Shown here: positions 42,641 to 59,727 of the stretch, one piece after another
Position numbering within the stretch: the first letter of the stretch is position 1
Layout: each line of letters starts with the position of its first letter
From: Verrucomicrobiota bacterium
GTDB taxonomy: Bacteria; Verrucomicrobiota; Verrucomicrobiia; Limisphaerales; CANJSG01
Direction: 5' to 3'
Length of the DNA: 64,000 bases
Assembly (NCBI GenBank): GCA_043744715.1
Contig: JAYTUE010000082.1
Coordinates: 1,884 to 65,883, forward strand
The notes under the pieces: model-generated
The model's input: the letters and a program-made list of their open reading frames with translations, nothing else
Told to the model about the DNA's origin: nothing
The model's database searches: none
Translations under genes and position numbers: made by a program

Positions 42641-42880
42641 CTAGGCCGCCCGCACCAGGATGGGAAAGGTGAAGGTCTTGTGCCCCAGCTTTTCCACAGG
42701 CCACGGTTCCCCTCTTTGTTGCAGAGATGCCAGGTGGAACTCGATGGCCGCTCGAACTGAAGCAGTCGCTTCCTCAAGGGTGTCTCCACGGGAAAAGCAG
42801 CCCGGCAAGGCCGGGACTTCCGCCCAATACCCTCCTTCGGCGGCGGGCTGGATCTTGACGGTGTAGTGCGTGATTTCCAT
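42641..42880 (-). CDS. hicB: Second HicB-family antitoxin paralogue
   Basis: 79 aa; YTVKIQPAAEGGYWAEVPALPGCFSRGDTLEEATASVRAAIEFHL. It lies in tandem with the first hicB. Confidence 0.8.
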   Translation of the reverse strand: MEITHYTVKIQPAAEGGYWAEVPALPGCFSRGDTLEEATASVRAAIEFHLASLQQRGEPWPVEKLGHKTFTFPILVRAA

Positions 42881-44832: not shown

Positions 44833-47156
44833 ATCTGAACTCGGAGTTCGGCTGCGGTGCGTAGGCGGACGGGTTGGAGCGCTCCGAACTTACGGATCAC
44901 CGCGTCGTATAAGTCTCCTGGAAACTTCGGCGCGGAAATTGTGATGATGGCTGCGTATTCGAGTCGATTGGTTGCGCCGTGGCGAGGAATGGCGTGCAGC
45001 ACGAGAAACGGCTCGTGCAGCGACGTGGCCCACTTCGATTTCGAGCGGCGCACTATGGCCTCCCACTTGTATTGCACCCGGCGTTCGCCCTCGGACGGAT
45101 ATTGATTGCCCGACTCCGAGACAGAGAGCACCGATTTTTTCCAGCCGTCTGCCAAGAGCGCTTTGACTTCTGCTGCGTCACCTAGGGTGTGAAGTCTTTT
45201 CGCTTTCACGCCTACCGCCTCGCGCTTGGGCGTGAAGGTGAATACCTGACTGTTCGGGTAGAACGTGTCTTCGATGCACATTGCGGTGTAGTCCGAAGGA
45301 TGATTCGGAGCTATGGGAGGCAGCGCGGCCACTGTCCATTTCACGCTCACTTTGCCACTCGTCACCAAATTTGGTGGCAACATGATCGGGAGCTTCACCA
45401 TCTTCTTCGCTGCGATGTCGCCTTGGAAAACGATTGTGACCGTTTTCTCATCGCAGCGTAGCAGCCCATCGAGATTCGCCGGGACGATGCCGTGTCCAAG
45501 AAAGTTGTCCGGTTCATCATCCGGGTGCGCGGCGGCGTGAATGAGCAGCGCGCGGGCGAGCAAAGCTGTTCCGCGTTCAAAGCTCTCCACCGCCTGCCCA
45601 CCGAGCGCCGCTACAATCGGCGATGCGAAGCTGGTGCCGGCGCTCAAAACTTTGATTCCCGGCGCTACAGCAACGAGGTGAATGGGCCGCTGGTCGCAGC
45701 CGCCGAAGGCCGCCACATCCGGTTTGAGCTTTGCACATTCACGACCAGGTCCTTGGCATGAATAGGGGGCGTGAATCTTCCCATTCTTTCGCTCAGTGTA
45801 AGCGCCTACGCCAAGCCCGTTCACCAAATCTGCGGGTGCTTGAATCCGGTTCATCCCCGCTCCCGCCGCACCGTCATTACCCACCGCCACACAAAACACA
45901 ACTTTGTGAGCTACAGCGAGCAGATCGAGCGCAAAAGTGAAGCGCGAAATCATGTCGTCGAGAAGCGGTCCGCGCGGACCAAAGCTCACATTGAAGACTT
46001 TGATGTCCTTGCGTGCCGGCACTGCCGCTTCAATGACGTCGATGGATTCGTAAAGATCAATGTCGGCTGAATTGGAAGTCGGCAGCGCCCGGATGCTTAC
46101 AACGGAAATCGCAGGTGCGGGCAACGGTGTCTTCGTATCGTGATCATTCAGTGGCCCGTATAGCATGGCTCCGGCAACAGCCGTGCCGTGAGCGATCCCT
46201 TCGGCTACAGCCGTCGTCTTGATTGAGAGACCCTCGTCCTGCTCAGCGTGTCCACGTAGCAACGGGTGACTCGGATCGATGCCGCCGTCGAACATCCCGA
46301 CTTTTATTGTCGACCGTGTCGTTGCGGTCGGCGGCGGCGGCGCGGGGAAGGTGGGCGCACTCCGCAGATTCTCAAAACCGCCGAAGACCAGCGGATGTGC
46401 TGTGCGGAGCGGGTTCGCACCCGCCAGGGCTTGGAGGGCGTTTCGGTTGAGATGACACGATACGAAAAGCGGTCCGCTCTCGTAGTAAGCAACGGTTGGT
46501 CTCCTCATCGTCACGCCTTGTTCGTGGAAGAGTTCCTTGAGGAAGTGCGCTTGCTCACCCTCCGAGTGACGCGAAGGATGCAACACAACTTCCACGCGTC
46601 CCTCTGTCCAACCTGGCTCAAAGCCGAGGAGTTGTTCGTGTGCTCCGAGAAGGTCGAACTTTTCGATGCGCTGAATCTCCTCACGAAATGGCCTTGGCAA
46701 TGTGCCCTCGGACTGGTCGAGCGCATTCAGTAGCCTGCGAAAGCCCGCATCGTTGCTGCGCACAAAGACCATACGACCGGTGACTTCATGGATATGTTGT
46801 TCGAGATGCTTTTTCATTCGCTTGGTCTGCGCGACCTCGGCGGTCGGAAGGCGAAAGTTGCGTGACCCGACGTTTTCCAAATCTCGCACGAGGCCAAAGA
46901 TGCCGTGTGGATCATAGGACTTCGCAATCATGTCCGGATGCAAGCGGAGGCAGAGCACCGCTTCGTCTTTGAAACGTTTGCGTGGAGGCAACTCTGCATA
47001 TTGCGCAAGGGCGGTGCTGATTTCGCGCTTCACTAGGTCGCGAGCCTCGCCATAGCTGCGCGGCATTTCAGTCGAGCCAAAACCGGAGCGCTTTTCGACC
47101 GGAGCCACGTATCGCTCACCATTGGCGAGGATGAGTCTGCGTTGCGGATCAGGCAT
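44829..47156 (-). CDS. ietS: Subtilisin-like S8 serine peptidase, IetS-like
   Basis: 775 aa with catalytic triad motifs VGMFDGGID, AHGTAVAG and GTSFASPIV. It overlaps the upstream AAA ATPase gene by 8 nt. Confidence 0.75.
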   Translation of the reverse strand: MPDPQRRLILANGERYVAPVEKRSGFGSTEMPRSYGEARDLVKREISTALAQYAELPPRKRFKDEAVLCLRLHPDMIAKSYDPHGIFGLVRDLENVGSRNFRLPTAEVAQTKRMKKHLEQHIHEVTGRMVFVRSNDAGFRRLLNALDQSEGTLPRPFREEIQRIEKFDLLGAHEQLLGFEPGWTEGRVEVVLHPSRHSEGEQAHFLKELFHEQGVTMRRPTVAYYESGPLFVSCHLNRNALQALAGANPLRTAHPLVFGGFENLRSAPTFPAPPPPTATTRSTIKVGMFDGGIDPSHPLLRGHAEQDEGLSIKTTAVAEGIAHGTAVAGAMLYGPLNDHDTKTPLPAPAISVVSIRALPTSNSADIDLYESIDVIEAAVPARKDIKVFNVSFGPRGPLLDDMISRFTFALDLLAVAHKVVFCVAVGNDGAAGAGMNRIQAPADLVNGLGVGAYTERKNGKIHAPYSCQGPGRECAKLKPDVAAFGGCDQRPIHLVAVAPGIKVLSAGTSFASPIVAALGGQAVESFERGTALLARALLIHAAAHPDDEPDNFLGHGIVPANLDGLLRCDEKTVTIVFQGDIAAKKMVKLPIMLPPNLVTSGKVSVKWTVAALPPIAPNHPSDYTAMCIEDTFYPNSQVFTFTPKREAVGVKAKRLHTLGDAAEVKALLADGWKKSVLSVSESGNQYPSEGERRVQYKWEAIVRRSKSKWATSLHEPFLVLHAIPRHGATNRLEYAAIITISAPKFPGDLYDAVIRKFGALQPVRLRTAAELRVQI

Positions 47157-48312
47157 GTTGAACCTCCTTGTTCTTCAGGCTTTTTCGCCCTGGGGCGTTC
47201 TTGGTCAGATGATACTGCACGGTGGATGAGCTTTTCCCGAAAAACTCGGCGATTTCGCGCACACTCATGCCGGTCATTTCTTTAAGTGTCTTGGTCATCG
47301 GTCCCAACTCGTCCTTCGGAATACCAGGCATCCGATGCGTAGTGGCCTCAATGAACGCGAAACCGAGCGGCACTTGTTCGACGACATGCCGGCGAACTAC
47401 GCCTTGCGCCATCGTATCGAGTTCCGAACCATTGCTGCCTGCAAGAATCCGCGCGATAGCGGCAAGAAAACCAGCCGGCAGTGCGCTAGCAAAGCGCCCA
47501 CAAGCACGCACAAGAATCGCCTCTCGTTGCAGCTCGCCGGGAAGCGGCGTTTGCAGCACCACATCAAAACGACGGTTGATGGCTGGATCGAGCAACTCCG
47601 GGTGATTCGTCGCGGCAATGAGGACAGAGTGTAAAGGCCATTCCTCCAACTCCTTTAAGAGGACGTTCACAATACGTTTGAGTTCACCAACTTCCGTCGC
47701 GTCGTCCCGACGTTTGGCGATGGCATCGAACTCATCGAGCAACAACACGCAGGGCGTCGCACGCGCGTAGTCGAGACTGCGTCGCAGATTTGAGCCCGTT
47801 TTGCCGAGAAAGCTGGAGATGGACGTGGCGAGATCAAGCACGACCAACGGCAGATCAAGTTTCAATGCAAGCCACCGGGCAAGCATGGTCTTGCCAGTTC
47901 CAGGCTGCCCTTTGAGCAACAGCGTGCGGGGCGGAGCGAACCCTTCTCGCAGCAGGCGCTCGACTTCCAAACGCTCGCGCAGGAAACGCGCGACGATTGC
48001 GTGAACCGCCGGCTCCAGGATCGGTTCAGGCGCATTGTCCGCCGGTAGCACGCGAAGCAAGGCCAGGCCCGCGTCCGCATCGGTTGGGGGCGGTTCAGCG
48101 GAGTGCCAGCGAATCGCAGCACTGTTGGCGGCAAACTTTGAGAGGAGATCGCCCAGATCTTCGGCGACTTGTGGGTATTCCTTTTTAAGCGAGCGAATCG
48201 CAGTGAGAGAGAGCAGTTCCAACCGCTGTCGGTTGCCAGACAGGCCAGCCTCGACAAGCTGAGGCAGGAGCGCACTTAGAGATTTTGTGCTAGAAATGTG
48301 CTCTTGTTTCAT
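47149..48312 (-). CDS. ietA: AAA+ ATPase with C-terminal HTH, IetA-like
   Basis: 387 aa with Walker A GQPGTGKT, Walker B VLLLDEFD and sensor ATNHPELLDPAINRRF, plus a C-terminal MSVREIAEFFGKSSSTVQYHL. It is paired with the S8 protease as in the IetAS defence system (Gao et al. 2020). Confidence 0.75.
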   Translation of the reverse strand: MKQEHISSTKSLSALLPQLVEAGLSGNRQRLELLSLTAIRSLKKEYPQVAEDLGDLLSKFAANSAAIRWHSAEPPPTDADAGLALLRVLPADNAPEPILEPAVHAIVARFLRERLEVERLLREGFAPPRTLLLKGQPGTGKTMLARWLALKLDLPLVVLDLATSISSFLGKTGSNLRRSLDYARATPCVLLLDEFDAIAKRRDDATEVGELKRIVNVLLKELEEWPLHSVLIAATNHPELLDPAINRRFDVVLQTPLPGELQREAILVRACGRFASALPAGFLAAIARILAGSNGSELDTMAQGVVRRHVVEQVPLGFAFIEATTHRMPGIPKDELGPMTKTLKEMTGMSVREIAEFFGKSSSTVQYHLTKNAPGRKSLKNKEVQHA

Positions 48313-48543
48313 TAGTTCGCACAGAATAATGATAGTGCCTGTATTTTATGGCAAGCTCAGTGTGCGGAAACTACGAAATAGAAAATATTGTTCGCACAAT
48401 GATTTCAATCGGCCAATGTGCTCTCCACCAAAAAACACGGGCATCGCACGCTCTTGAATCCGTCGCATGTGCCCGCCCCAGAGATGGATGTGGAGGCCCT
48501 GACTGCAAAGATTCCGGAACACAAGCCGTGTTAGAATGATCGG

Positions 48544-49491
48544 ATGTCCCAAGGACGTCTTCCCCGTTTCCAACGTGCCTCCGGTGTTGCGCGCATCAAC
48601 CTGACCGAACGCGACCGTGAGATGCTGCGCCAAGTGCATCGGCATCGGTTTCTTCGGTCTTCCCATTTGATTTCCTTGGTCGGTGGCAGCCGGCAACACC
48701 TCCTTCGTCGTCTTCAGTTGCTCTACCACAACGGTTATCTGGAACGTCCCCGAGCCCAGATCGACTACTTTCATCGGGGCGGTTCCCGCGCCATCGCCTA
48801 CGGACTTGGGAACAAAGGTTCTGCTCTTTTGAAGCGCGGGATGTCGCTTCCCTTCCAGCGGCTGGATTTGGGCGCGAAGAACGGCGGCACGAGTCGGCTT
48901 TTCCTGGAGCACACGCTCTTCATCGCGGACATCATGGTGTCGTTGGAACTCGCCTGCCGCCGTCATGGGCAGGTTCGATTGGTCGCTGCGGATGAACTGC
49001 CTCTACCCGAAGCCACTCGTCACCAGCGTGAACCCTTTCAATGGCGAGTTTTGGTGGGAAACCGTCTGAAGCTGGGTGTCATTCCCGACCAAGTGTTCGG
49101 TTTGGAGTTCACGGGTTCAGGAACGAAACCCACACGAGCCTTCTATTTCTTGGAAGCCGACCGGGCGACGATGCCCGTGATGAGGCAATGCCTCTCTCAG
49201 TCGTCTTTCTACCGGAAGCTGCTGGCCTACGAAGCGACATGGACGCAGAACCTCAACCGTTCCCACCTCGGGTTGAACCGTTTTCGCGTGCTCACCGTCA
49301 CCAGCAGTCCCGAGCGCGTGCAAACCATGGTCGAGGCCTGTAGAAAACTGGAGAAGGGTCGGGGACTGTTCCTGTTCACAGACGCCGACACGGTCCTGAA
49401 GTGTGCCGATCCGCTCGCACTGGCGTGGATCTCCCCCAACTCGAAGGCTCCCGAGTCTTTGCTCGATTCCCTGTCGCCTCCGCGCCCTTGA
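48544..49491 (+). CDS. Replication-relaxation (Replic_Relax) family protein
   Basis: 315 aa; LTERDREMLRQVHRHRFLRSSHLISLVGGSRQHLLRRLQLLYHNGYLERP matches the remembered N-terminal signature of PF13814. Confidence 0.7.
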   Translation: MSQGRLPRFQRASGVARINLTERDREMLRQVHRHRFLRSSHLISLVGGSRQHLLRRLQLLYHNGYLERPRAQIDYFHRGGSRAIAYGLGNKGSALLKRGMSLPFQRLDLGAKNGGTSRLFLEHTLFIADIMVSLELACRRHGQVRLVAADELPLPEATRHQREPFQWRVLVGNRLKLGVIPDQVFGLEFTGSGTKPTRAFYFLEADRATMPVMRQCLSQSSFYRKLLAYEATWTQNLNRSHLGLNRFRVLTVTSSPERVQTMVEACRKLEKGRGLFLFTDADTVLKCADPLALAWISPNSKAPESLLDSLSPPRP

Positions 49492-49608
49492 ACCTTGCGT
49501 CTCTGGCGGGATGTTCTGATTTCGTGCTAGGATAATCTTTGGAGGCAACCCCCGGCATTCGCCGGTCGGTTCCACTTGTTCACCACACTCCCAACCCAAG
49601 GAAGATCC

Positions 49609-50625
49609 ATGCCCAAGAAGAAGCTCGTCGATTTCCGCGCCGTGCGCGAGGCCGTCACGATGGAGGAAATCTTGAACCACTACGGACTCCTCGACCGGAT
49701 GAAACGCAATGGCGACAACCTCAGCGGTTGTTGCCCGATCCACAAAGGAAAGAACCCGACACAGTTCCGGGTCAGTCTCGAAAAGAACCTCTGGAACTGC
49801 TTCAGCGAATGCAAACACGGCGGCAACGTCATTGACTTCATCTCCCGGATGGAGGACGTGAGCGCCTACGCCGCCGCCCAGAAAGCCATCGAATGGTTCA
49901 AGCTTTCTGAAGAGATGGTCTACGCCGAAGGGGCTGCGGCTCCGCAAGAGGAAGCCGAAGCCGCTCCGCGTCCGAAGGCCGCCACCACGGTGGTTCAGGA
50001 ACCCAAGCCCGAAGGCACGGCTCCCAATCCGCCGCTGACGTTCCGGCTGGACAATCTCCAGCGCGATCATCCCTACCTGGCCGAACGCGGGCTGACCCTT
50101 GAAACCATCGTGGATTTCGGGGTCGGGTTCTGCGCCAAGGGCATGATGGCGGGTCGCATCGCCATCCCCATCCACAACGCCAAGGGACAGGTCGTCGCCT
50201 ACGCCGGTCGCCATGTGGGTGATCCAGCGGAAGGCACACCCAAATATAAGTTGCCGCCGGGATTCAGGAAATCGCTGGAACTCTTCAACCTCGACCGGGC
50301 CAAGCAGGCTTCGCCTGATCTTCCACTCATCGTGGTCGAAGGGTTCTTCGACGCCATGAAGCTGCATCAGCTCGGGCACCGCAAGGTGGTCGCCCTCATG
50401 GGCAGCAGCATGTCGGCGGCCCAGGAAGACCTGATCCGCCGGCACACCGACCAGCACAGCCTGATCGTGGTGATGCTGGACGAGGACGAGGCCGGGCGTT
50501 CCGCCCGCGACGAGATCGCATCGCGATTGGCGAAGTTCGCCTACGTGCGGATTCACGCGTTCGAGAAGGAAGGATTCCAACCCGAACATCTCACGGCAGA
50601 ACAACTGGCGGGCATCTTCGCCTGA
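49609..50625 (+). CDS. DnaG-like primase (CHC2 zinc finger + Toprim)
   Basis: CCPIHKGKNPTQFRVSLEKNLWNCFSECKHGGNVIDF (CHC2), with Toprim motifs VVEGFFDAM and MLDEDEAGR. The ATG at 49609 is preceded by GGAAG. Confidence 0.85.
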   Translation: MPKKKLVDFRAVREAVTMEEILNHYGLLDRMKRNGDNLSGCCPIHKGKNPTQFRVSLEKNLWNCFSECKHGGNVIDFISRMEDVSAYAAAQKAIEWFKLSEEMVYAEGAAAPQEEAEAAPRPKAATTVVQEPKPEGTAPNPPLTFRLDNLQRDHPYLAERGLTLETIVDFGVGFCAKGMMAGRIAIPIHNAKGQVVAYAGRHVGDPAEGTPKYKLPPGFRKSLELFNLDRAKQASPDLPLIVVEGFFDAMKLHQLGHRKVVALMGSSMSAAQEDLIRRHTDQHSLIVVMLDEDEAGRSARDEIASRLAKFAYVRIHAFEKEGFQPEHLTAEQLAGIFA

Positions 50626-50637
50626 AAGGAGACCACC

Positions 50638-50967
50638 ATGGATGTCCATTGCTCCACCTGTTGCGAACCCTGGGATACACACCACCTCTGGCACGACGCC
50701 ATCTTCGAGACCGGCTTGCCCATGGAGTCGGCGGAAGCCTGGGGTTCATTGCCCGGAGCCGAGAAATTGTCCGAACGATTCCGAAAGGAGTTTCTGTCGG
50801 TCGGCTGGGTCTTCGGTCGAAGCGTCATCAACGTCGTCCGTTGCCCCTGTTGCCCCAAGGACGCCTTGCCGAATCCCGAACGGGTTCAGACCAAGGCTGC
50901 CTTGGAGGAACTCCTGGGTGACGACGAGGACGGATTGGCCGCCACCTTTGAGGATTATCGCCTATGA
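50638..50967 (+). CDS. Hypothetical Cys-rich (zinc-ribbon-like) protein
   Basis: 109 aa with CSTCC ... CPCC pairs and a strong AGGAG RBS. It overlaps the next gene by 4 nt. Confidence 0.6.
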   Translation: MDVHCSTCCEPWDTHHLWHDAIFETGLPMESAEAWGSLPGAEKLSERFRKEFLSVGWVFGRSVINVVRCPCCPKDALPNPERVQTKAALEELLGDDEDGLAATFEDYRL

Positions 50968-51236
50968 ACAACCCGAAATTCGACCTCGGACGGCTCATGA
51001 TCACGAGCCATGCCATGTCCACCCTCGATCCTTTGGAGATCGCCAAAGCCGTTTCCCGTCATCTCCAAGGTGATTGGGGCGACTGTGATCCCGAAGACCG
51101 CGCTGCGAATGACGCCGCCTTGTTGGAAGGTTCCCGCCTGTTCTCGGTCTACCATACCACGAACAAAACCAAGTTCTGGATCATCACGGAATGGGATAGA
51201 TCGGCTACAACCGTTCTCCTACCCGAAGACTACTGA
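50964..51236 (+). CDS. Small conserved plasmid/ICE-associated protein
   Basis: 90 aa with GDWGDCDPED and a C-terminal WIITEWDRSATTVLLPEDY, a pattern remembered from small genes next to radC and antirestriction genes on mobile elements. No precise family name is claimed. Confidence 0.55.
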   Translation: MNNPKFDLGRLMITSHAMSTLDPLEIAKAVSRHLQGDWGDCDPEDRAANDAALLEGSRLFSVYHTTNKTKFWIITEWDRSATTVLLPEDY

Positions 51237-51243
51237 GCACAAG

Positions 51244-51271
51244 CCCCGTCCGCAAAGGAGGGGCTTTTTTC
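51244..51271 (+). terminator. Rho-independent terminator
   Basis: GCCCCGTCC-gcaaa-GGAGGGGC followed by TTTTTT. Confidence 0.75.
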
Positions 51272-51420
51272 TGGGCGTGGTAAACTGGTGGATGGAGGTA
51301 GGCCGTGTGGTTTGCCCGTAGTTCTTCCAACCCAAAGAGGGATCGTGCCGCTTCCAGGGAGTCACCTTCCTGGAAGCACCTGTTACTAGCAGGCTGCACG
51401 ATCCCCGAGAGAGAGTCATC

Positions 51421-51924
51421 ATGAACCAACCCGATCTGTTCAAGGACGGAACCAGTCCCCACAAAGGAACGTATCAACCCAAGGAGTTCAAGGTGGTCGC
51501 TCTGCGCGACTGCCCCACACCCATGGCAATGCAGCTCTGCGACACCCCGCAACGCGCCGCCGACTATTGGCGGCTCCACATCGCAACCCATCCGCACTTC
51601 GATCCCGAACGCGAGTGCCTCGCGGTGCTCCTGCTCAACACCCGGTTCCGGGTCAAAGGGCATCATCTGGTTTCGACCGGACTCCTCGACACCCTGCTGG
51701 TCCACCCGCGCGAGGTGTTCCGCGTCGCCATCATCGCGGCCGCCCATTCGCTCATGCTGCTCCACAACCACCCTTCGGGTGATCCCACGCCCAGCGACGC
51801 CGACATCCGCGTCACCCGCGATCTCGTCCGTGCCGGCCAGATGCTCAAGATCGAGGTGCTCGACCACATCGTCATTGGCAGACCGGATCATCGGTCGCTG
51901 AGGGAACTGGGGTATTTCAGCTAG
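51421..51924 (+). CDS. radC: RadC-like JAB/MPN domain protein
   Basis: LLHNHPSGDPTPSDADIRVT (JAMM motif) and EVLDHIVIG. Confidence 0.9.
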   Translation: MNQPDLFKDGTSPHKGTYQPKEFKVVALRDCPTPMAMQLCDTPQRAADYWRLHIATHPHFDPERECLAVLLLNTRFRVKGHHLVSTGLLDTLLVHPREVFRVAIIAAAHSLMLLHNHPSGDPTPSDADIRVTRDLVRAGQMLKIEVLDHIVIGRPDHRSLRELGYFS

Positions 51925-51931
51925 CAAGCAT

Positions 51932-51956
51932 AGCCCGACATTAAAAGTGTCGGGCT
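51932..51956 (+). terminator. Terminator-like hairpin after radC
   Basis: AGCCCGACA-ttaaaag-TGTCGGGCT; the downstream T-tract is only weak. Confidence 0.5.
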
Positions 51957-52294
51957 GACTATATTTCTCAGTCAAATTAGTTGTTCATTTCTGAAGAAAG
52001 CCACCCACTTTACGAGCCACTTAATTAAGACTTTCAGAGGAGCTGCCCGCGCTAAAACAACATTTGCAAGATCAATCTCTACACAATTCATTAAAAAATC
52101 CCACTAACGCCCCCCCCCAACAGCCAATTCCACCGGCCGAGGAAACCGTTTTGATTTTCACGTCAAGGACGAAAAAGATACAGCAAATTGTATGGTTGAC
52201 TTCCGAAACCACAACGGGCAGTAGAAGGAGACTAAATGAGAGCGGAAAGCAACTGGTCTACTAATTCTCTCGGGATTGCTCAACTCCAGTCTCC

Positions 52295-54310
52295 ATGTTA
52301 GAAACGAAGACTACACTGGTGGCAGACATACTGCATGGAGTCATCGCGTTGTCTCCGCTGGAGAAGCGACTTGTTGCCACTCGGGCATTCAATCGTCTCC
52401 ACAACGTTCTCCAGAACTCGACCGTATATTTCACTTACCCGTCAAACCGTACCTCGCGCCTGAGCCATTCGCTTGGTGTTGCGAAGATCGCTGGAGAATT
52501 ATTCCGGCAGGGGTTGCTCAATGCCACAGTGGACGATCGCCGAGCATTTCTGAAGATGGCACACACCAGTATCGGAGAATTCCAGAGTGAAACCGCTTTT
52601 AGGGAAGATACAGCGCGTCACACTTCAGGTCACACACATATAGGAGATTTGCTAAGGTCAAAGACTATTGCCATCCCATGCGATTTCTATTCATCGATGC
52701 TCCTTGCCGGACTCGAGCCTGACGAAATTCGCACCTACCTCGTTTTGTTGCAATCTGTCCGTTATGTGGCCCTTCTTCATGATCTTGGACATCCACCATT
52801 CTCACATGTGACAGAAGCGGCCCTGCAAAGCGGTTTCGAGCGATTACAAGGCGACGACGTTATTCCAACTTCTCGCCGCGGAATTCTTAAACAAGAATTG
52901 ACTGAATTTCTTTCTGGACCAGATGATGCCGCGTTTCATGAGCTGCTCGGCCTTGAACTCACAAAAACATTGTTAGACACAGTTTTGGCGGACTTGAAGA
53001 AGGAAAGTCTTACCGACTATCAACTTTTTGATGTTCTCGTAATAAAACACGCAACGTTAAAGATTTTACAGAACAAGCCGTTTTTTTGTATCCTTCACCA
53101 AATCGTTGACTCGGATCTTGATGCCGATCGTTTGGACTACGTTCAACGGGATCTGATCAGTTCGGGAATGTCGCGCGAACCGTTCCGTCCCGACCGATTG
53201 ATTCAATCCTTTACATTGATTGCAGATGCTGCGGAGCAGGCGTATCCATTTCTTTTTCTCCCTTCAATACGAGCTCTCAATAATTTGGAGGACTTTTTTC
53301 ATCAGAGATTTCAACTTTATAAGTATGTGATCTTTCATCATAGAGTGGTCAAATTTGATGGATTGCTTCAGCGATGTATTGAAGAAATTAGTGATCAAGC
53401 GCTCATTGAAACCCCGCTTGTTGAGGCTGCCAGTGGCGTTGAATCTGCTCCCAATGAAAATCCTCTCCTTCTGCCAACCGGCATTGCGGGCATCTGGAGT
53501 CTTTTTAGCCGGGCTGTTTCCACAAACCCGCTACAAAGAGAAAGTTTTTATGTTCAATGGGATGACGCTTGGCTTTTAGGAGCACTCCGCAATAAGTATT
53601 TCACAATGAAGCGGTTCCGGAGTCTGCAAAATCCGCCCGTTACGGAAAAAACCGTATTAGAGGTTCGCCTTGAAGAAATGCTGTCAAATCAGAAGCATCA
53701 TCGAGCGCTATTTAAGCGTGGGGAATGTTTTTATGCTGTTGACGATGCATTTTGGAGAGCGATTCCAGACAACACCTCATTTACGTCGTTTGGGAAATCG
53801 TGGGAGCCAAATCCAACTGGGCATTTTGCATTTGAGAAAGGTGGGAAAAAAATTCAAGATTATGTCTCCCAACTTAGGAGCGCCTCAGGCGATGGTGAAG
53901 CTCTGACGGAACTTGTGGAGCAATATGGGTATGTGCTGTCTTTGATTTGCGCCTTAGTCCATCGTATTGCCGGGCGAAAAGTTCCATTGAGTTTTCTATT
54001 TAAGGCAGCCCTGGAGTTCAAAGAAATTCACTTTAGAGACAACATTTTGGATGTAATTGTTATTCCTAAAACAATTAAAGCAGGGGTTCAACGCAACTTT
54101 AGGTTGGCCGCTAATAATATGGAGATTGTGCCGATCGGCCGCGTGTCGCCGATCGCGGGGGAATTGGAGCGGGCATCATTGTTGTTTCCTCCTTTTTTTG
54201 TATACATGCTTTCCGCAAATGAACCTTCGGATGGGGAACGCCTGAAATGGCGCGCTGAATTTGGCCAACTGCTTTGGAAGCACTTCCAGACGTGGGCTCT
54301 TATCGATTAG
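52295..54310 (+). CDS. SAMHD1/dGTPase-like HD-domain phosphohydrolase with a ~340-aa C-terminal extension
   Basis: 671 aa with DILHGVIALSP ... FNRLHNVLQ ... RLSHSLGV, LLHDLGHPPFSH and DADRLDYVQRD, which are the dNTP triphosphohydrolase HD signatures. It sits in a markedly AT-richer cassette. Confidence 0.8.
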   Translation: MLETKTTLVADILHGVIALSPLEKRLVATRAFNRLHNVLQNSTVYFTYPSNRTSRLSHSLGVAKIAGELFRQGLLNATVDDRRAFLKMAHTSIGEFQSETAFREDTARHTSGHTHIGDLLRSKTIAIPCDFYSSMLLAGLEPDEIRTYLVLLQSVRYVALLHDLGHPPFSHVTEAALQSGFERLQGDDVIPTSRRGILKQELTEFLSGPDDAAFHELLGLELTKTLLDTVLADLKKESLTDYQLFDVLVIKHATLKILQNKPFFCILHQIVDSDLDADRLDYVQRDLISSGMSREPFRPDRLIQSFTLIADAAEQAYPFLFLPSIRALNNLEDFFHQRFQLYKYVIFHHRVVKFDGLLQRCIEEISDQALIETPLVEAASGVESAPNENPLLLPTGIAGIWSLFSRAVSTNPLQRESFYVQWDDAWLLGALRNKYFTMKRFRSLQNPPVTEKTVLEVRLEEMLSNQKHHRALFKRGECFYAVDDAFWRAIPDNTSFTSFGKSWEPNPTGHFAFEKGGKKIQDYVSQLRSASGDGEALTELVEQYGYVLSLICALVHRIAGRKVPLSFLFKAALEFKEIHFRDNILDVIVIPKTIKAGVQRNFRLAANNMEIVPIGRVSPIAGELERASLLFPPFFVYMLSANEPSDGERLKWRAEFGQLLWKHFQTWALID

Positions 54311-54355
54311 TATTTGTTTTTGGAGAATGCTATTATATTGCTGGAGAAATAACAT

Positions 54356-54568
54356 ATGTGCAAACAGTTTGACGATAATCGACGCTTAGTTTCAAAACTG
54401 GTTTATTCAAGACGACAATTTACCGTAGAGGAAATTATCGCGGCTTATCGCAATGAAAGAGGTAACGCGATAATCGACGGCTTTGAGACCATCCGCAGTT
54501 TTATTCGTGGACTAGAAGAGCATGGTGCGCTGCGGATGGAACACGGTAAATATGTGGTCAACGATTAA
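54356..54568 (+). CDS. Hypothetical 70-aa protein (small winged-helix-like)
   Basis: ORF in the same low-G+C cassette, 45 nt after the HD gene and followed by a strong terminator. Confidence 0.5.
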   Translation: MCKQFDDNRRLVSKLVYSRRQFTVEEIIAAYRNERGNAIIDGFETIRSFIRGLEEHGALRMEHGKYVVND

Positions 54569-54573
54569 CCTCA

Positions 54574-54605
54574 AGAGCTTAACTTAAAGTTAAGCTCTTT
54601 TTAAT
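54574..54605 (+). terminator. Rho-independent terminator
   Basis: AGAGCTTAACTT/AAGTTAAGCTCT palindrome followed by TTTTAATTT. Confidence 0.75.
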
Positions 54606-54676
54606 TTGAAATAGCATCAAATGACGAGATTTACATTTTATTAAGCTTGGAAATTTAATTTTATCTGTGTTGCTCA

Positions 54677-55396
54677 ATGTTCAACTTCTTCAAAAAGAAG
54701 ACGGAGGTATTAAATCACTGGATCGCATTTGCTGATGGGTTCCAGACTTCCCCGTTGGAGTTCTACGCGGCTTTGGAAAAGGAACTGGCAGACCGGCAGG
54801 TCCCGAGCATGGAGATGAAGCGCATCGAGCTGCCCGAAGGCGGGCTGCTTTCCGAGAAGCGCGTCTACCTGCGGATGCTGCGGGAAAGACTGGTGTTCGA
54901 CGTGTGCGCCGCTCCGTTTGGGAGCGGCTTTTTCTTTTCCTGCCGCACTTCGGAAATCCCCGTTGTCCTCAACCTTCTGGAGCTGGCCCTGGTGTTCATG
55001 GCGGGCGCGTTGTCCTTTGTGGCGTTCACCTACTTCCTTGGCTTCATCCTGGGAACCTTGAGCTTGTTGGCGCTGCTCGTCGCCGCCGTCTACGTGCTCC
55101 GCAACGCCGTGGCCATGGGATTGCAGGATCTGGACAAGACCCTTCAGCAATCGCCCTTCGTGGGCACCGTCTACGAAGCCTGGTTCCGCAAGGAGACCTA
55201 CCACCGCATCGATTCGCGGCTGTGCTATCTGGAGGTGGTTCCCTCATTGGTGAAGAAGCTGGCCGAAGACACGGCCGCCACCAAGGGCATCAAACTCGTG
55301 CGCCAGTTCCAACTGGCTCCCGTCTTGGGCGAACTCTACCAGCCGGCGGCACCAACCTTGAACCCTGTCCCCTATGCCCCACCGGTCGGTGCATGA
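54677..55396 (+). CDS. Hypothetical membrane protein (2 TM helices)
   Basis: 239 aa with central helices VVLNLLELALVFMAGALSFVAFTYFLGFILGTLSLLALLVAAVYVL. Its 3-prime end overlaps the next ORF by 23 nt. Confidence 0.65.
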   Translation: MFNFFKKKTEVLNHWIAFADGFQTSPLEFYAALEKELADRQVPSMEMKRIELPEGGLLSEKRVYLRMLRERLVFDVCAAPFGSGFFFSCRTSEIPVVLNLLELALVFMAGALSFVAFTYFLGFILGTLSLLALLVAAVYVLRNAVAMGLQDLDKTLQQSPFVGTVYEAWFRKETYHRIDSRLCYLEVVPSLVKKLAEDTAATKGIKLVRQFQLAPVLGELYQPAAPTLNPVPYAPPVGA

Positions 55397-58300
55397 GCAG
55401 GTGTCCGAGCAGTTCGCGGAGCTTGAGCGTCGTGGACGTGGGTGGCAGGTGTTTCCCGAGCCGGTCACGCCAGAACCGCCCTTTGTCCCCTTCACCGGCT
55501 ACACCCTGGCTTCCGTGCTGGACGACGGACGCGTGCCGACCGTGGGCAGTTCCCTGCTTTCCGGCGTCCTCCGTTGGCTGAACAAGGAACCCCAGGTTCC
55601 ATCGAATGAGGACGAAGCCGAGGAACCAGTCCCGACTCCGCTCGTGCGGGAGGATCTGGTCGAACTTCAACTCTCGCTGCCCGATAGCCTGAAGGTGTCT
55701 CCCGAGGTGTTCGCCGGCTTCCTTTCCCAACTCACACTCTGCACCGAGCCCGTGAGCTTCGAGCTGTTCGGCACCACTGAAAAGGTTGTCGCCCAGTTTT
55801 CCGCCAGCCATTCGGACGCACCCGGTGTGCGTCGGCAGCTCTCCGCCCATTTCCCCGAGGTGGTGTTCCTGCCGACGAAGGACACACTTTTTCCACTGGC
55901 TGAACCTGACGCCCACCATGCGGTGGTCGAGTTCGGTCTGGAGAAGGAGTTCCTGCTGCCTTTGGCCTCCGGAGGACTTGATCCCTTTGTGGCTCTGGTG
56001 GCTGCCATGGGCGAACTGCGCGAGGGCGACTGCGCCCTCTACCAGGTGCTCTTTCAGCCCTGCCGCCATCCTTGGCGGGAAAACATCCTCCGCTCCGTGA
56101 CCGACGGCGAAGGCGGAGCCCTCTTCGTCAATCGTCCCGATCTCGTGATGCTGGCCAAAGGCAAGGTGTCCCAGCCGCTCCATGCCGTGGTGGTGCGGAT
56201 CACCTCGAAAAGCGGCAGCTTCGAGGAAGCTTGGGAGATTCTGCGGGGGTTGGCGAGAGCCTTGCGGGTGTTCTCGAACCCGGAGGGCAACGAACTCGTT
56301 CCGCTGGCCAATGACGACTATCCGGCCGAGGCCCATTTGGAAGATGTGCTCCGTCGCCAGACCCGACGCAGCGGGATGCTGCTCAATGCCGATGAACTGG
56401 CCGGCTTCGTCCATCTGCCTTCGCCCGCAGTCCGCACGGCCAGGTTTCAGCGGCAGTCCAAAACCAGCAAAGCCCCTCCAAAATCTCTCTCCCCTGTGGG
56501 GGTTCTATTGGGAACCAATCTCCACGCGGGCAAAACCACTCCCGTCCGTCTCTCCGCCGAACAACGGACGCGCCACATGCACGTCATCGGGGCTTCGGGC
56601 ACGGGCAAGAGCACCTTCCTCTTCAACCTGATCCAGCAGGACATCCTCGCCGGTGAAGGGCTCGCCGTCCTGGACCCGCACGGCGACCTGATCGACCGGA
56701 TCTTGGAAGTCATTCCCGAGCACCGGATCAAGGACGTCATCCTTGTCGATCCCTCCGACGAAACCGCCTCCATCGGGTTCAACATCCTGTCGGCGCACAG
56801 CGACTTGGAGAAGACGCTGCTCGCCTCCGATCTCGTGTCCGTCTTCGCGCGGCTTTCCACCAGCTGGGGCGACCAGATGGAGGGCGTGTTCCGCAACGCC
56901 ATCCTCGCGTTCCTGGAAAGCAGCCAGGGCGGCACGCTCTCCGATCTCCGCCGCTTCCTGCTCGATCCCAAATACCGCGAGCGGTTCCTCGCCACCGTGC
57001 AGGACCCGGACATCCAGTTCTACTGGCGGAAGGGGTTCGCCCAGCTCACGGGCAACAAGTCCATCGGCCCCGTGCTGACGCGCCTGGAAATCTTCCTCGC
57101 CCCCAAACCGATCCGCTACATGGTGGCGCAGCCGGTCAACCGGCTGGACTTCACGGGCATCCTCGACTCCGGAAAGATCCTCCTCGCCAAACTGTCGCAA
57201 GGAGCCATCGGCAAGGAAAACTCCCATCTGCTGGGTTCCCTCTTCATGGCCAAGCTGCAACAGGCGGTCATGGCCCGGCAGCGGCAGGAGGCGGCCGTCC
57301 GCCAGGACTTCTGGCTCTACTGCGACGAGTTCCACAACTTCATCACCCCGAGCATGGCCGAAATCCTGAGCGGGGCGCGCAAGTATCGGCTGGGACTCGT
57401 CCTCGCCCACCAGGAGCTGCGGCAGTTGGAACGCGACCGCGAGGTGGCCAGCGCCGTCCTCTCCAATCCCTATACCCGCGTGGTCTTCCGCGTGGGCGAC
57501 GATGATGCACGGAAGCTGGAGAACGGGTTCTCCTCGTTCGAGGCCCACGATCTCCAGAACCTCGCCACGGGCGAAGCCGTGGTGCGGATCGAACGGAGCG
57601 ACGGTGATTTCAACCTGCGGGTTTCCCAGCCGGAAAAGGTCGATCCTGCTTTGGCAGCAGCACGGTTGAAGGAAGTGACGGAAGCCTCCCGTCGCACCTA
57701 CGCCACGCCACGGGCGGAGATCGAGGCCGCGTTACGGCAGCAGTTCCCACCAGAAGAACCCCCGCAGTCTGCGGAAGCACGGAAGGATGCGGAAGAGTTC
57801 CGTGCCGTGCCGAAGGCTTCCGAACGCATCGGAAAAGTTCCGAAGATGGCGGAAAGCAGCGGCATCGTTCCGCAGGTTGCCGAAGCGCCGAAGACGTCTG
57901 AACCCGGCGCTGACTCAAAAGCAGCGCTTGAGACCGAACATAGCGCCATCAAGCGACAGATCACGCGGCACGCCGAAGCGTTGGGCTACCATGTCGCGGT
58001 CGAAGAATTTGTGGCGGACACCCTCGGGCGGGCCGATCTGGTTCTTCGTCGCGGGAAACGGGTCGTCGCCGTCGAGGTGTCCGTGACGACCAATGCCGGG
58101 AATGAAATCGGCAACCTCGTCAAATGCCTGTCGGGCGACTTCTCGCAGGTTGTCCTCGTGGCGACCAGCGCCCGGAAGCTCGCCAACATCGAGCGGCGGT
58201 TCCGCAGCACCGCCCCGGCGGAAGGCGCTGCGGAAGTAGTTTTTTGCCTGCCCGCAGACCTCCTTGAACAGCTTCGGACATGGGCGGCGGGCGACCCGCG

Positions 58301-58445
58301 CGATTTGGCGACCGAAAAGGCATTTCCACGCAAACAGCCGATCAATCTGGTGGCACCACGGATGACCGACGCCGAGCGGACCGAGCGCGAAGGGGCGATG
58401 CTGGCGCGTTTACGGGAGGCGATGAAAACGCCGCCGCCGACATAG
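55374..58445 (+). CDS. Large TraD/DUF87-like P-loop ATPase fused to a decapeptide-repeat linker and a PD-(D/E)xK-like C-terminal domain
   Basis: 1023 aa. aa 1-400 have no recognised family. Walker A GASGTGKST (56589..56615), Walker B FWLYCDEFHNF and a TraG-D_C-like LVLAHQELRQLERDREVASAVLSNPYTRVVFRV. Repeats AEEFRAVPKA SERIGKVPKM AESSGIVPQV AEAP. Then LGYHVAVEEFVADTLGRADLVLRRGKRVVAVEVSVT (nuclease-like D ... E-x-S/K core; tentative). Confidence 0.8.
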   Translation: MPHRSVHEQVSEQFAELERRGRGWQVFPEPVTPEPPFVPFTGYTLASVLDDGRVPTVGSSLLSGVLRWLNKEPQVPSNEDEAEEPVPTPLVREDLVELQLSLPDSLKVSPEVFAGFLSQLTLCTEPVSFELFGTTEKVVAQFSASHSDAPGVRRQLSAHFPEVVFLPTKDTLFPLAEPDAHHAVVEFGLEKEFLLPLASGGLDPFVALVAAMGELREGDCALYQVLFQPCRHPWRENILRSVTDGEGGALFVNRPDLVMLAKGKVSQPLHAVVVRITSKSGSFEEAWEILRGLARALRVFSNPEGNELVPLANDDYPAEAHLEDVLRRQTRRSGMLLNADELAGFVHLPSPAVRTARFQRQSKTSKAPPKSLSPVGVLLGTNLHAGKTTPVRLSAEQRTRHMHVIGASGTGKSTFLFNLIQQDILAGEGLAVLDPHGDLIDRILEVIPEHRIKDVILVDPSDETASIGFNILSAHSDLEKTLLASDLVSVFARLSTSWGDQMEGVFRNAILAFLESSQGGTLSDLRRFLLDPKYRERFLATVQDPDIQFYWRKGFAQLTGNKSIGPVLTRLEIFLAPKPIRYMVAQPVNRLDFTGILDSGKILLAKLSQGAIGKENSHLLGSLFMAKLQQAVMARQRQEAAVRQDFWLYCDEFHNFITPSMAEILSGARKYRLGLVLAHQELRQLERDREVASAVLSNPYTRVVFRVGDDDARKLENGFSSFEAHDLQNLATGEAVVRIERSDGDFNLRVSQPEKVDPALAAARLKEVTEASRRTYATPRAEIEAALRQQFPPEEPPQSAEARKDAEEFRAVPKASERIGKVPKMAESSGIVPQVAEAPKTSEPGADSKAALETEHSAIKRQITRHAEALGYHVAVEEFVADTLGRADLVLRRGKRVVAVEVSVTTNAGNEIGNLVKCLSGDFSQVVLVATSARKLANIERRFRSTAPAEGAAEVVFCLPADLLEQLRTWAAGDPRDLATEKAFPRKQPINLVAPRMTDAERTEREGAMLARLREAMKTPPPT
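57770..57895. repeat. Heptamer array B: 10 copies in exact 10-bp phase plus out-of-phase flanking copies
   Basis: Starts at 57788 + 10n: TGCGGAA TTCCGTG TGCCGAA TTCCGAA ATCGGAA TTCCGAA GGCGGAA AGCGGCA TTCCGCA TGCCGAA. Extra copies lie at 57770 (TGCGGAA) and ~57888 (CCGAA). Confidence 0.9.
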
Positions 58446-58466
58446 GCTTGGCAGCGGGTCGGGGAG

Positions 58467-59600
58467 CTATTTCGCGCCGAACAGCGGCATCGTGGTGACG
58501 GCACTCCGCAGGGTGGACACTTCCAGATGGGTGTATCGCTTGTTCATCTCCTTGGAGGAATGCCCCGTCAGTTTCATCCTCAGTTCGTCCGAAACTCCGG
58601 CGTTGGCGAGGATCGAGTTGAAGCTGTGGCGGAGCGAGTGGAACGTCCGTTGGGTGAACTTGCGCGTGCCCTTTCCTTCGATCACACCCGGATCGATGCC
58701 GGCCCCCACCACGATCCGTTTGAAGCTCTCCGAGAGCCCGTGTTTTCCACCCGGCCCCTTTGTCGCCAGCTTGGGGCAAAGGAATCCGGCGGTGCCAAAA
58801 GTCTTCAGGTAGTCCAGATGTTCAAGGATGTGGAAATGCATCGGGATGATGACTTTTTTACCCGTCTTTTTCTGGAGATAGACGATGACCCCTTCCGCCG
58901 GAAGGACGTTCTCCCATTGCATCTGGACGCAGTCGCCCAACCTCGCGCCGAGGAAATAGCCCAGCAGGATCAGGGTTTGCCATTCCAACGACGGCGCGGC
59001 CCCGATGAGCTTCTGGACCTCTTCCTGCGTAAAGATGCCGCGTTCCGAGCTTTCATCCTTCGGCAGCTGCACCGCGACCACCGGGTTCTTGAGGATGATG
59101 CCGTAAAGCTCGGCCCGCCGAAACGCGCTCTTCAGCGTCTTCACGTCGACGATGGCGGTCTTCGGCGCGGCTCCGGAGTTCAGCCGCCAGTTAAGGAATC
59201 CTTCCACTTCGGCGGGTGTCACCGACGTCATGGGTTTCTTCTCCCGTGGCCCCAAGTGGGCCAGGAAGAGGCGGACCGAATTCCCGTAACGCACATGCGT
59301 CCCGGTTGCGCGTCTGGCCTTCACCCCATCCAGCCAGCCGTTCAGATAGTCGGCGACCGAGGGAACCGCCAGACTGTCGCCGTTCACTTTCTCCGAGACG
59401 TCGTTGAGCACCTTCCGCAGCTGCGCGGTCGTCAAGGAACCGGCGCGGGCCTGCTGCTCCACCCGCTCCAGTTCCACCGCCACCCGCATCGCTTGATTCC
59501 GGTCGGTGGTCTTGGCCGATCGTTTCAACTGGCGTCCGTTGCGGTCGGTGAAGCACGCGATCCAGTAGCGGGATTCGTCCCGGCGAATGACGGTTGCCAT
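58467..59600 (-). CDS. Tyrosine-type site-specific integrase
   Basis: 377 aa with an N-terminal SAM-like/arm-binding region and a catalytic region with LGARLGD, HSLRHSF and GHSSKEMNKRYTH (R..HxxR..Y). Its 5-prime end lies 98 bp from attR. Confidence 0.9.
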   Translation of the reverse strand: MATVIRRDESRYWIACFTDRNGRQLKRSAKTTDRNQAMRVAVELERVEQQARAGSLTTAQLRKVLNDVSEKVNGDSLAVPSVADYLNGWLDGVKARRATGTHVRYGNSVRLFLAHLGPREKKPMTSVTPAEVEGFLNWRLNSGAAPKTAIVDVKTLKSAFRRAELYGIILKNPVVAVQLPKDESSERGIFTQEEVQKLIGAAPSLEWQTLILLGYFLGARLGDCVQMQWENVLPAEGVIVYLQKKTGKKVIIPMHFHILEHLDYLKTFGTAGFLCPKLATKGPGGKHGLSESFKRIVVGAGIDPGVIEGKGTRKFTQRTFHSLRHSFNSILANAGVSDELRMKLTGHSSKEMNKRYTHLEVSTLRSAVTTMPLFGAK

Positions 59601-59611
59601 GGACTGAGAAT

Positions 59612-59624
59612 AAAAGCGGGAATG
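59612..59624 (+). repeat. AAAAGCGGGAATG motif related to the attL-proximal 12-mers
   Basis: A single copy between the integrase start and attR, in the same orientation as 28384..28407. Confidence 0.4.
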
Positions 59625-59697
59625 AAAAGCTCAAGACATGGCCTCAAAACGATGCGCTACATGTTGACCATCAATGCTTGGAAAAAGGTGCATCGAG

Positions 59698-59727
59698 ACG
59701 AGGGTTCGATTCCCTTCACCCGCTCCA
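59698..59727 (+). repeat. attR core (displaced copy of the tRNA-Gly 3-prime end)
   Basis: Identical 30-mer to 28295..28324. The upstream sequence does not continue the tRNA. Confidence 0.9.

Follow-up and report, generated by a model that had tools for sequence, protein, structure and literature searches.

We analysed a 64,000-nt stretch of genomic DNA from a Verrucomicrobiota bacterium (contig JAYTUE010000082.1, positions 1,884 to 65,883; hereafter the window), in which two overlapping genes at 54677..58445 encode a small protein with two transmembrane (TM) segments and a large, multidomain ATPase. Results of our analyses in silico suggested, with a probability of roughly 0.6, that this pair is the membrane-anchored DNA-coupling or translocase unit of an integrative mobile element. 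It has the look of a so far undescribed relative of the coupling proteins used in conjugation, and not that of a defence system. By its sequence the large protein belongs to the type IV coupling protein (T4CP) branch (TrwB/TraD/VirD4) of the FtsK-HerA ATPases, and structure models suggest that a VirB4-like N-terminal domain has replaced the usual TM domain and that a tethered nuclease-fold domain has been gained. DNA transfer is the best-supported function, because the pair keeps company with an integrase, attachment (att) sites, a MOB_C-class relaxase, a primase, RadC and ArdC, and has relatives on plasmids. The pair and its parts are as follows.

54677..55396, plus strand: small open reading frame (ORF), 239 amino acids (AA), with a TM hairpin between conserved cytoplasmic N- and C-domains
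54956..55099, plus strand: TM hairpin, small protein; its sequence and its length differ from homologue to homologue
55374..58445, plus strand: large ORF, multidomain ATPase of 1023 AA
55374..55508, plus strand: conserved N-terminal helix-strand motif QF..WE.RGRGW..PEPV.PEPPF (alignments, model), followed by a disordered spacer (AA ~45-88)
55638..56489, plus strand: DUF8128 domain with a fold like that of the VirB4 N-terminal domain (AA ~89-372; PF26449, AlphaFold2, Foldseek)
56502..57734, plus strand: P-loop ATPase core of T4CP type (AA ~377-787; Pfam, NCBIfam, TrwB in the PDB)
56589..56615, plus strand: Walker A motif GASGTGKST (AA 406-414), K412 invariant in 66/66 homologues
57318..57332, plus strand: Walker B motif YCDEF (AA 649-653), D651 and E652 invariant in 66/66
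57741..57923, plus strand: flexible linker rich in P, A, E and K (AA ~790-850)
57924..58298, plus strand: PD-(D/E)xK-fold domain (AA ~851-975) with H856, E877, D888, E901-x-S903, E911 and K917
58368..58427, plus strand: conserved amphipathic C-terminal helix (AA ~999-1018; alignments, model)

The following features lie directly beside the pair.

54573..54608, plus strand: intrinsic-terminator-like hairpin, which closes a cargo segment 5′ of the pair; AT-rich spacer
54630..54659, plus strand: promoter-like TTTACA-N18-TTTAAT in the AT-rich spacer, weak and found by eye
58467..59600, minus strand: tyrosine integrase of the element (Pfam Phage_integrase 9.7e-19), convergent with the large ORF

The sequence of the window gives a 23-nt overlap between the two ORFs, and in alignments both start codons match the N-termini of homologues. 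The arrangement described in the initial annotation, namely two overlapping ORFs between a terminator and a convergent integrase, is confirmed; the terminator has a 12-bp stem followed by a T-run (54573..54599), and the integrase gene starts 21 nt beyond the end of the large ORF. A sigma-70 scan 5′ of position 54677 returned no promoter, and the promoter-like sequence breaks the rule of that scan (A at position 2).

Over AA ~385-715 the large protein matches four Pfam families above their gathering scores: TrwB_AAD_bind (43.6 bits; cutoff 20.5), TraG-D_C (25.2 bits; cutoff 22), T4SS-DNA_transf (22.7 bits; cutoff 20.1) and DUF87. These matches bear out the earlier description of a coupling-protein-type P-loop core with a TraG-D_C-like tail. 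The best NCBIfam matches are VirD4-like CD1115 and SXT TraD, and the closest solved structure by sequence is TrwB (1.7e-5). Both Walker motifs are intact, as judged from residue counts in 66 homologues drawn from many phyla. The core is also paralogous, as had been proposed, to a stand-alone ATPase encoded at 43552..44832 (35% identity over 417 AA, E 2e-70). The FtsK_SpoIIIE profile scored 17.6 bits on the large protein, below its cutoff of 24, and covered 32 residues only. The core is followed by the linker, which varies from 26 to 113 AA among homologues and is unconserved in sequence. This segment had been taken for a heptamer/decapeptide array, which did not hold up: it contains about three loose ‘VPKxxE’ decapeptides, and it is not a DNA repeat, because TRF run on 57600..58000 found no tandem repeat.

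No strong TM segment was found in the large protein, which hence lacks the N-terminal TM domain of T4CPs. Two strong hydrophobic segments (AA 94-112 and 123-141) are present instead in the small protein, so that the membrane part is a separate polypeptide, as the initial annotation had it. The hairpin is flanked by a conserved N-domain (AA 1-93) and a conserved C-domain (AA ~146-215). The family has 990 homologues; neither Pfam, NCBIfam, PADLOC nor PHROGs gave a match, and when a profile was run against the PDB, GPCR transmembrane noise came back and nothing else. As the small protein is tightly linked to the large ATPase, co-conserved with it and the sole 2-TM or membrane protein of the element backbone, its simplest role, judged by analogy, would be that of a membrane anchor for the ATPase.

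The first ~400 AA of the large protein had been called assignable to no family. This was refuted by public precomputed annotation, in which the region is Pfam PF26449 (DUF8128), and by the fold model described below. A profile of AA 89-372 matched 1899 representative proteins (clusters at 50% identity), 500 of them at E <= 1e-30, and the best matches are nearly all ~1000-1090 AA long with the domain equally placed. Our literature search found no description of DUF8128, of the gene pair or of the element family. An AlphaFold2 model of AA 1-372, built from an alignment of 40 homologues, reached pLDDT 89 and pTM 0.87. Its top PDB matches in Foldseek were TrwK/VirB4 of the R388 type IV secretion system (T4SS), with E from 2e-5 to 4e-4, ~360 aligned columns and probability 1.00, but with a TM-score of 0.42 and 7-9% identity; FAD-oxidase substrate domains came next, with shorter alignments. 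Since the P-loop proteins TrwB, FtsK and HerA were missing from the Foldseek list, we infer that the modelled domain resembles the N-terminal domain of VirB4, not its ATPase domain. The N-domain profile gave no alignment to a genuine Bacillus VirB4 in hhalign, and for this reason we do not claim VirB4 membership for the large protein.

In the viral structure library (BFVD) the best matches of the N-domain model were Bacillus phage proteins of 550-913 AA, among them phage G gp156 (E 1e-17), and the list also holds a ‘component of type IV transporter system’. The phage matches probably belong to phrog_5156, a family with no known function. For the proteins of phages G, Slash and JL (G3MBM2, U5Q0H6, S5MSQ0) the TM-score to the DUF8128 model was up to 0.59, well above that of VirB4.

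Searches of a plasmid collection returned 201 records matching the large protein, most through the ATPase core, and the genes concerned are annotated as T4CP, VirD4 or TraM-recognition. Two Bacillus plasmids (L084, NZ_CP032854.1; L093, NZ_OX419568.1) encode an 886-913-AA DUF87 protein that aligns co-linearly with AA 125-775 in the large protein (24% identity, tblastn E 3e-24); its N-terminal part matches the DUF8128 profile weakly but co-linearly (E 0.003). Directly 3′ of its gene lies Replic_Relax, followed by TcpC, TcpE, an AAA_10 VirB4 and a large VirB6-like gene. As it adjoins the relaxase and a true VirB4 is separately present, the Bacillus relative sits in the coupling-protein slot. It has no small membrane gene on its 5′ side, and an acidic tail in place of the nuclease domain. 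In the haloarchaeal Halomontanus plasmid (L085, NZ_CP135526.1, 7485..11730) DUF8128 is a separate 391-AA gene product (hhalign probability 95.9, E 5.5e-9), encoded between a ‘conjugal transfer protein’ and a 1026-AA TraM-recognition ATPase whose start its gene overlaps. This arrangement is a split version of the bacterial DUF8128-ATPase fusion.

The same data bear on a different assignment, in which the large protein is a VirB4-type energiser and the small one the VirB3-type partner of a divergent, unrecognised T4SS, with the 426-AA stand-alone paralogue as its coupling protein. The VirB4 matches of the N-domain model speak for it, as do the viral ‘type IV transporter’ component among the structure matches, the gene order virB3-virB4 known from other systems (PMC12857230, PMC3158045) and the position of the 426-AA paralogue, which adjoins the relaxase in a related locus (L001). 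Nevertheless, we consider it decidedly improbable. The large protein has no match to the Pfam VirB4 families (CagE_TrbE_VirB, AAA_10), and NCBIfam VirB4 models fall far below the T4CP models (TIGR00929 VirB4_CagE: E 0.003, 15.7 bits, cutoff 643). The hhalign comparison was negative, the TM-score is low, and the Bacillus homologues occupy the T4CP slot beside a canonical VirB4. Moreover, VirB3 is half as large as the small protein, and no other channel genes accompany the pair.

The C-terminal segment had been suggested to resemble a restriction-endonuclease-fold core, and at the level of the structure model this fold is established. An AlphaFold2 model of AA 846-1023 (pLDDT 88) shows an alpha-beta-beta-beta-alpha-beta order (H-E-E-E-H-E), and its best Foldseek matches in the PDB were R.BspD6I, EcoT38I, the R2 endonuclease domain, Bax1, PspGI, Hjc and Can2, with E from 4e-4 and probability up to 1.00. 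The fold was recognised only from the model; a profile of the domain found nothing meaningful among PDB sequences. H856, E877, D888 and E911 are invariant in the 66 homologues, E901 is kept in 64/66 and K917 in 63/66. D888 lies on beta2, E901 on beta3, and E911 and K917 on the helix that follows. Such conservation suggests a metal site, and the pattern of residues, with E-x-S/T at beta3, is compatible with a ‘migrated lysine’ variant of PD-(D/E)xK enzymes. We also considered that the domain might be a duplicated MOB_C relaxase domain; this was dropped because hhalign against the Replic_Relax protein of the element showed no relation (probability 0.4).

Full-length relatives of the large protein, 52-70% identical, number in the thousands and come for the most part from metagenome-assembled genomes (MAGs) of Verrucomicrobiota; a scan of one genome per species gave at least 560 loci. 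Among the hosts are Verrucomicrobiota, Acidobacteriota, Planctomycetota, Hydrogenedentota, Sumerlaeota/BRC1, Binatia, Nitrospirota and Bacteroidota, as well as a gammaproteobacterium and Desulforudis; one of the hosts, Brevifollis gellanilyticus (NBRC 108608, L075), is a cultured isolate, and several MAGs hold two to three copies of the element. Full-length identity is still 41-48% in distant phyla. In 56/64 loci with upstream DNA the two genes of the pair adjoin each other, mostly at -4 to +15 nt, when ORFs are clustered strictly, and tblastn found the small gene beside the large one in ~70/74; the two are thus conserved together. In 38/54 loci with enough DNA, the large gene is followed by a recombinase of the serine or tyrosine type. 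Of 79 loci, 70 have the small gene, 43-47 a serine recombinase, 25 the primase, 18 Replic_Relax and 13 an anti-restriction gene of ArdC type. Many loci have a paralogous ATPase within 10 kb of the pair, and in distant phyla this gene stands directly 5′ of the small one, which gives a three-gene operon.

Close relatives numbered only three among 2.9 million IMG/VR contigs, and a phage origin is hence unlikely; yet the N-domain has structural relatives in Bacillus phages. In one locus (L008) the stand-alone ATPase block with its small upstream ORFs sits 3′ of the large gene, inverted, which fits a circular form integrated elsewhere or a rearrangement. A ComM/YifB-like Mg-chelatase ORF (ChlI and Mg_chelatase, 375 AA as called) was seen in L033 (14662..15789, minus strand) and in ten other loci, ~7 kb 3′ of the large gene and beyond the serine recombinase; elements may insert into or beside comM.

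In the window the pair stands near the right end of an integrative island, which has the following features besides the pair and the integrase.

28295..28324, plus strand: attL, a 30-bp direct repeat formed by the 3′ end of tRNA-Gly(TCC) (28251..28324)
33127..40123, plus strand: 2075-AA RHS-repeat protein, then a 250-AA HEAT-repeat protein, between the tRNA gene and the backbone
41349..41744, plus strand: HTH_36 or Rep-O-like winged-helix backbone protein (Pfam HTH_36 1.3e-11), with homologues in L051 and L070
42354..42880, minus strand: pair of adjoining genes for HicB-like antitoxins (80 and 79 AA), island cargo
43552..44832, plus strand: stand-alone soluble TraD/TrwB-type ATPase, 426 AA (TrwB_AAD_bind 1.8e-11, DUF87), with no TM segment; the longest ORF begins at 43426 (468 AA)
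44829..48312, minus strand: IetS (S8 protease, E 7e-54) and IetA (AAA ATPase, E 1e-77), between the stand-alone ATPase and the relaxase
48544..49491, plus strand: Replic_Relax (PF13814, Pfam 1.3e-17), candidate relaxase of MOB_C class, in PHROGs ‘replication initiation by nicking’
49576..50625, plus strand: DnaG-type primase with Zn-ribbon and Toprim, backbone, conserved in 25 loci
51421..51924, plus strand: RadC-like JAB protein (Pfam RadC 1.1e-35), backbone, conserved in 14 loci
52295..54568, plus strand: low-GC (0.46) segment that runs up to the terminator, with a 671-AA HD protein (weak dGTPase match, 1.8e-10) and an ORF of 70 AA
59698..59727, plus strand: attR, the second 30-bp copy, which lies 98 nt past the integrase gene and marks the right-hand border of the island

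The exact 30-mer has two copies only in the window, with 0 expected by chance, and because one copy is at tRNA-Gly and the other beside the integrase, the island was delimited as 28295..59727 (~31.4 kb). This is larger than the region considered in the initial annotation. Integrases 61-71% identical to that of the island stand at the equal position in L005, L018, L024 and L054. Replic_Relax belongs to the MobC relaxase class (PMC5357655, Table 1). Like an integrative and conjugative element (ICE), the island has a tyrosine integrase and att sites; by the usual rules it would class as mobilizable, because a relaxase and T4CP-like proteins are present and VirB4 and pore genes are absent. The earlier statement that mating-pore genes are missing holds for the whole att-bounded island, which also has no polytopic membrane genes.

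The backbone of the island is found again in another locus (L001) in the same order, with other cargo and with a serine recombinase replacing the tyrosine integrase; a further one (L092) is alike. IetAS looks like an insertion into this backbone, because L001 holds a 213-AA gene at that position. The slot 5′ of the small gene appears to be a cargo hotspot: it is filled by radical SAM/MOSC in L001 and by TCAD9 and HD genes in L092. The RHS-repeat and HEAT-repeat proteins are possibly a toxin-immunity pair, and for the HicB genes no HicA partner was identified among the scanned ORFs. IetAS, the HD/dGTPase-like gene, HicB and the RHS toxin are variable cargo of the island. Cargo elsewhere comprises SIR2-HerA, TIR, DUF2130, TCAD9 and methyltransferases, and defence genes are cargo because they differ from locus to locus. 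Cargo beside the pair in one locus (L061, 13268..17728 and 4743..5936) includes DUF2130, a SIR2-like protein accompanied by a HerA-type ATPase, and a TIR protein of CAP12/Pycsar type.

Such neighbours had led to the proposal that the pair is a self-contained module of a defence island, in which a membrane sensor, a translocase and a nuclease degrade incoming phage or plasmid DNA. Apart from IetAS, the dGTPase-like HD protein and HicB close by, this proposal can draw on a PADLOC match of the large protein to mad8 (8.6e-13) and on the C-domain fold, which also resembles LmuA, Can2 and Cdn1. However, PADLOC matched no defence system as a whole and gave zero matches for the small protein. On the large protein it recognised only the generic ATPase core (mad8, HerA, DndH), and identity with mad8 was rejected as generic P-loop similarity, since the stand-alone paralogue (1.9e-13) and IetA (3.8e-4) match as well. 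The pair keeps a fixed place beside the recombinase and varies jointly with relaxase, primase and ArdC, the defence genes vary (SIR2-HerA, TIR, DUF2130, TCAD9), and full-length conservation across phyla is 41-70%. We regard a defence function as highly improbable; the pair is a fixed part of the backbone of an integrative element, and the idea of an independent two-gene module finds no support.

A role in maintenance or replication of the element (segregation, processing of forks or ends, or exclusion of competing elements) could also be envisaged from the backbone, which includes a primase, an HTH_36/Rep-like protein and a Replic_Relax protein annotated as well as a nicking replication initiator. 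Homologues of the N-domain in phages (phrog_5156; G, Slash, JL), where conjugation is not expected, would agree with it, as would the SWIM protein and Cas4-like nuclease beside the operon in distant loci. These two form a conserved, divergent pair of SWIM zinc-finger and Cas4-like PDDEXK_1 genes 5′ of the operon (L061, 6416..8057; L072, 6071..7896; L083, 5748..7657, minus strand). Still, the closest annotated relatives are coupling proteins beside relaxases in conjugative plasmids, ArdC and RadC, which are typical of transferred DNA, travel with the pair, and replication needs no membrane anchor. A maintenance role therefore seems rather improbable. The alternative of the initial annotation that fits the evidence is that of a DNA-transfer or processing machine, given the island backbone, the T4CP-type core and the plasmid relatives.

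On the transfer reading, the integrase would excise the element at the 30-bp att repeats and the Replic_Relax protein would process its DNA. The 239-AA protein would supply the membrane anchor in trans, in parallel to TraI of pIP501, and the large ATPase, presumably a hexamer and possibly together with its 426-AA paralogue, would feed DNA towards the membrane at the expense of ATP. The PD-(D/E)xK-fold domain on its 26-113-AA tether may bind or cut the DNA substrate. Since the island encodes no channel or mating-pore proteins, crossing of the envelope would need either a helper T4SS, the element then being an integrative mobilizable element (IME), or an undescribed minimal route. What the data show are the structure and linkage of the genes, the folds of the domains, the conservation of catalytic motifs, the borders of the island and the plasmid relatives in the T4CP slot; that the two proteins interact, that the ATPase forms hexamers and pumps DNA, that the C-domain acts as a nuclease and that the element is transferred is what we infer. 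Each component of this scheme is of a kind already known, whether the coupling ATPase, the separately encoded anchor, the PD-(D/E)xK fold or the integrative element.

The missing pore also leaves room for a more radical scheme, in which the 426-AA ATPase, the 2-TM protein and the ATPase-nuclease fusion act with the recombinase as a self-sufficient DNA export system that works without a T4SS, by a ‘push’ like that of TraB or TdtA. This would be an unrecognised, conjugation-like mode of transfer: the tethered nuclease makes a DNA end, the motor threads it out and the recipient takes up the DNA. Consistent with it, mating-pore genes are neither present in the island nor conserved in the 79 loci, the three genes form one operon beside a recombinase in distant phyla, and the family extends over many phyla and at least 560 species genomes. 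There is also a precedent in ICETh1 (PMC5365140), and the nuclease fold is fused to the motor with invariant or nearly invariant residues. We hold this scheme to be unlikely, because most hosts are diderm and the element offers nothing for passage of the outer membrane, and because the ATPase is T4CP-like and not FtsK- or HerA-like. In addition, the plasmid relatives in Bacillus and haloarchaea coexist with full sets of conjugation genes, and a MOB_C relaxase implies classical, relaxase-led transfer of ssDNA.

Several results weigh against assigning the pair to coupling of DNA transfer, our preferred reading. No NCBIfam T4CP equivalog cutoff was reached by the large protein, whose best scores were 44.9 bits against a cutoff of 250 and 41.9 bits against one of 366. 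In the C-domain, beta3 carries E-x-S/T, with S, T or A at position +2, not E-x-K. The architecture is not exclusive to conjugation, as Bacillus phages (G gp156, Slash, JL; phrog_5156) carry the same N-domain. Genes like VirB4 (AAA_10, CagE_TrbE_VirB), VirB6, VirB8 or TcpC are absent from the island and none is conserved within +/-10 kb in the 79 loci (the genomes of the hosts were not searched for helpers), which leaves the route over two membranes unexplained. No origin of transfer (oriT) was identified for the element, and two T4CP-like paralogues in one element are unusual. Finally, loci in distant phyla have no Replic_Relax within 10 kb, and the SWIM protein and Cas4-like nuclease flank the operon there.

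If the transfer reading is true, the two genes would be the signature transfer pair of a family of integrative elements that is very abundant and, as it seems, undescribed. The hosts of this family (Verrucomicrobiota, Acidobacteriota, Planctomycetota, Hydrogenedentota, Sumerlaeota and others) are phyla for which almost nothing is known on horizontal transfer. Standard conjugation detectors would flag only the relaxase in such elements. Because they carry defence cargo (IetAS, dGTPase-like and toxin-antitoxin genes in the island; SIR2-HerA, TIR and restriction-modification elsewhere), they are likely vehicles for the mobility of defence islands in environmental bacteria. The gene pair provides a testable function for DUF8128 and for an unnamed 240-AA family. 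Its combination of a VirB4-like domain, a separate anchor and a tethered nuclease bears on the relationship between T4CPs and VirB4, and on whether DNA donation is possible without a full mating pore. Were export self-sufficient, it would drive a very large element family in Verrucomicrobiota, Acidobacteriota, Planctomycetota and further phyla that have been little studied.

Compared with known T4CPs (R388 TrwB, F and SXT TraD, VirD4), the large protein shares a P-loop core that matches T4CP Pfam profiles, with intact Walker motifs, and a relaxase gene is present in the att-bounded island, as homologues adjoin Replic_Relax in the Bacillus plasmids L084 and L093. It differs from them in that it has no N-terminal TM domain and carries a ~370-AA DUF8128 N-domain and a PD-(D/E)xK-fold tail; the island, too, differs in having a second T4CP-like paralogue and no VirB4 or mating-pore set. 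The absence of a TM domain has a parallel in pIP501, where the small 2-TM protein TraI was suggested as an anchor for the coupling protein TraJ, which lacks such a domain (PMC12857230). In both cases a 2-TM protein is encoded with a soluble T4CP-type ATPase, and anchoring in trans is proposed. The two systems, compared by description, are unlike in that the anchor here has 239 AA and two conserved cytoplasmic domains, and that pIP501 has a complete Gram-positive T4SS whereas the island has none.

The gene for VirB3, a small 2-TM protein, lies immediately 5′ of virB4 and is often overlapping or fused with it (PMC12857230, PMC3158045). VirB3-VirB4 (TrwM-TrwK of R388) thus resembles the pair in the overlapping upstream 2-TM gene, and the N-terminal domain of VirB4 is the best fold match of the N-domain model. 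On the other hand, the ATPase core is T4CP-like by sequence, relatives of the large protein coexist with true VirB4, other T4SS subunits are absent, and VirB3 has 10-15 kDa against the 239 AA of the small protein. The Bacillus DUF87 and Replic_Relax pair and the split DUF8128 of haloarchaea share the co-linear order of N-domain and ATPase and the association with a MOB_C-type relaxase or conjugation genes; unlike the pair, they lie inside complete conjugation clusters and have neither a nuclease domain nor a small TM partner on the 5′ side, and they are themselves uncharacterised.

MOB_C relaxases (pAD1 TraX, CloDF13 MobC) are PD-(D/E)xK-superfamily enzymes for the processing of conjugative DNA (PMC12857230), and a restriction-endonuclease fold can hence serve DNA transfer, although the C-domain shows no detectable sequence relation to the Replic_Relax protein of the element. 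ICETh1 of Thermus, inserted at a tRNA gene, has an integrase, a hexameric membrane-associated ATPase, TdtA, and nucleases required for transfer (PMC5365140). ICETh1 and the Streptomyces TraB system differ from the island in that TdtA is HerA-like and TraB FtsK-like, the nucleases are separate, and neither a relaxase nor DUF8128 is involved. What TdtA ‘transjugation’ and TraB have in common with the proposed unit is an integrase-bearing mobile element and a membrane-associated hexameric ATPase of the FtsK-HerA superfamily, which in those systems donates DNA without a T4SS (PMC5365140); TraB, furthermore, has a C-terminal DNA-recognition domain (PMC5365140).

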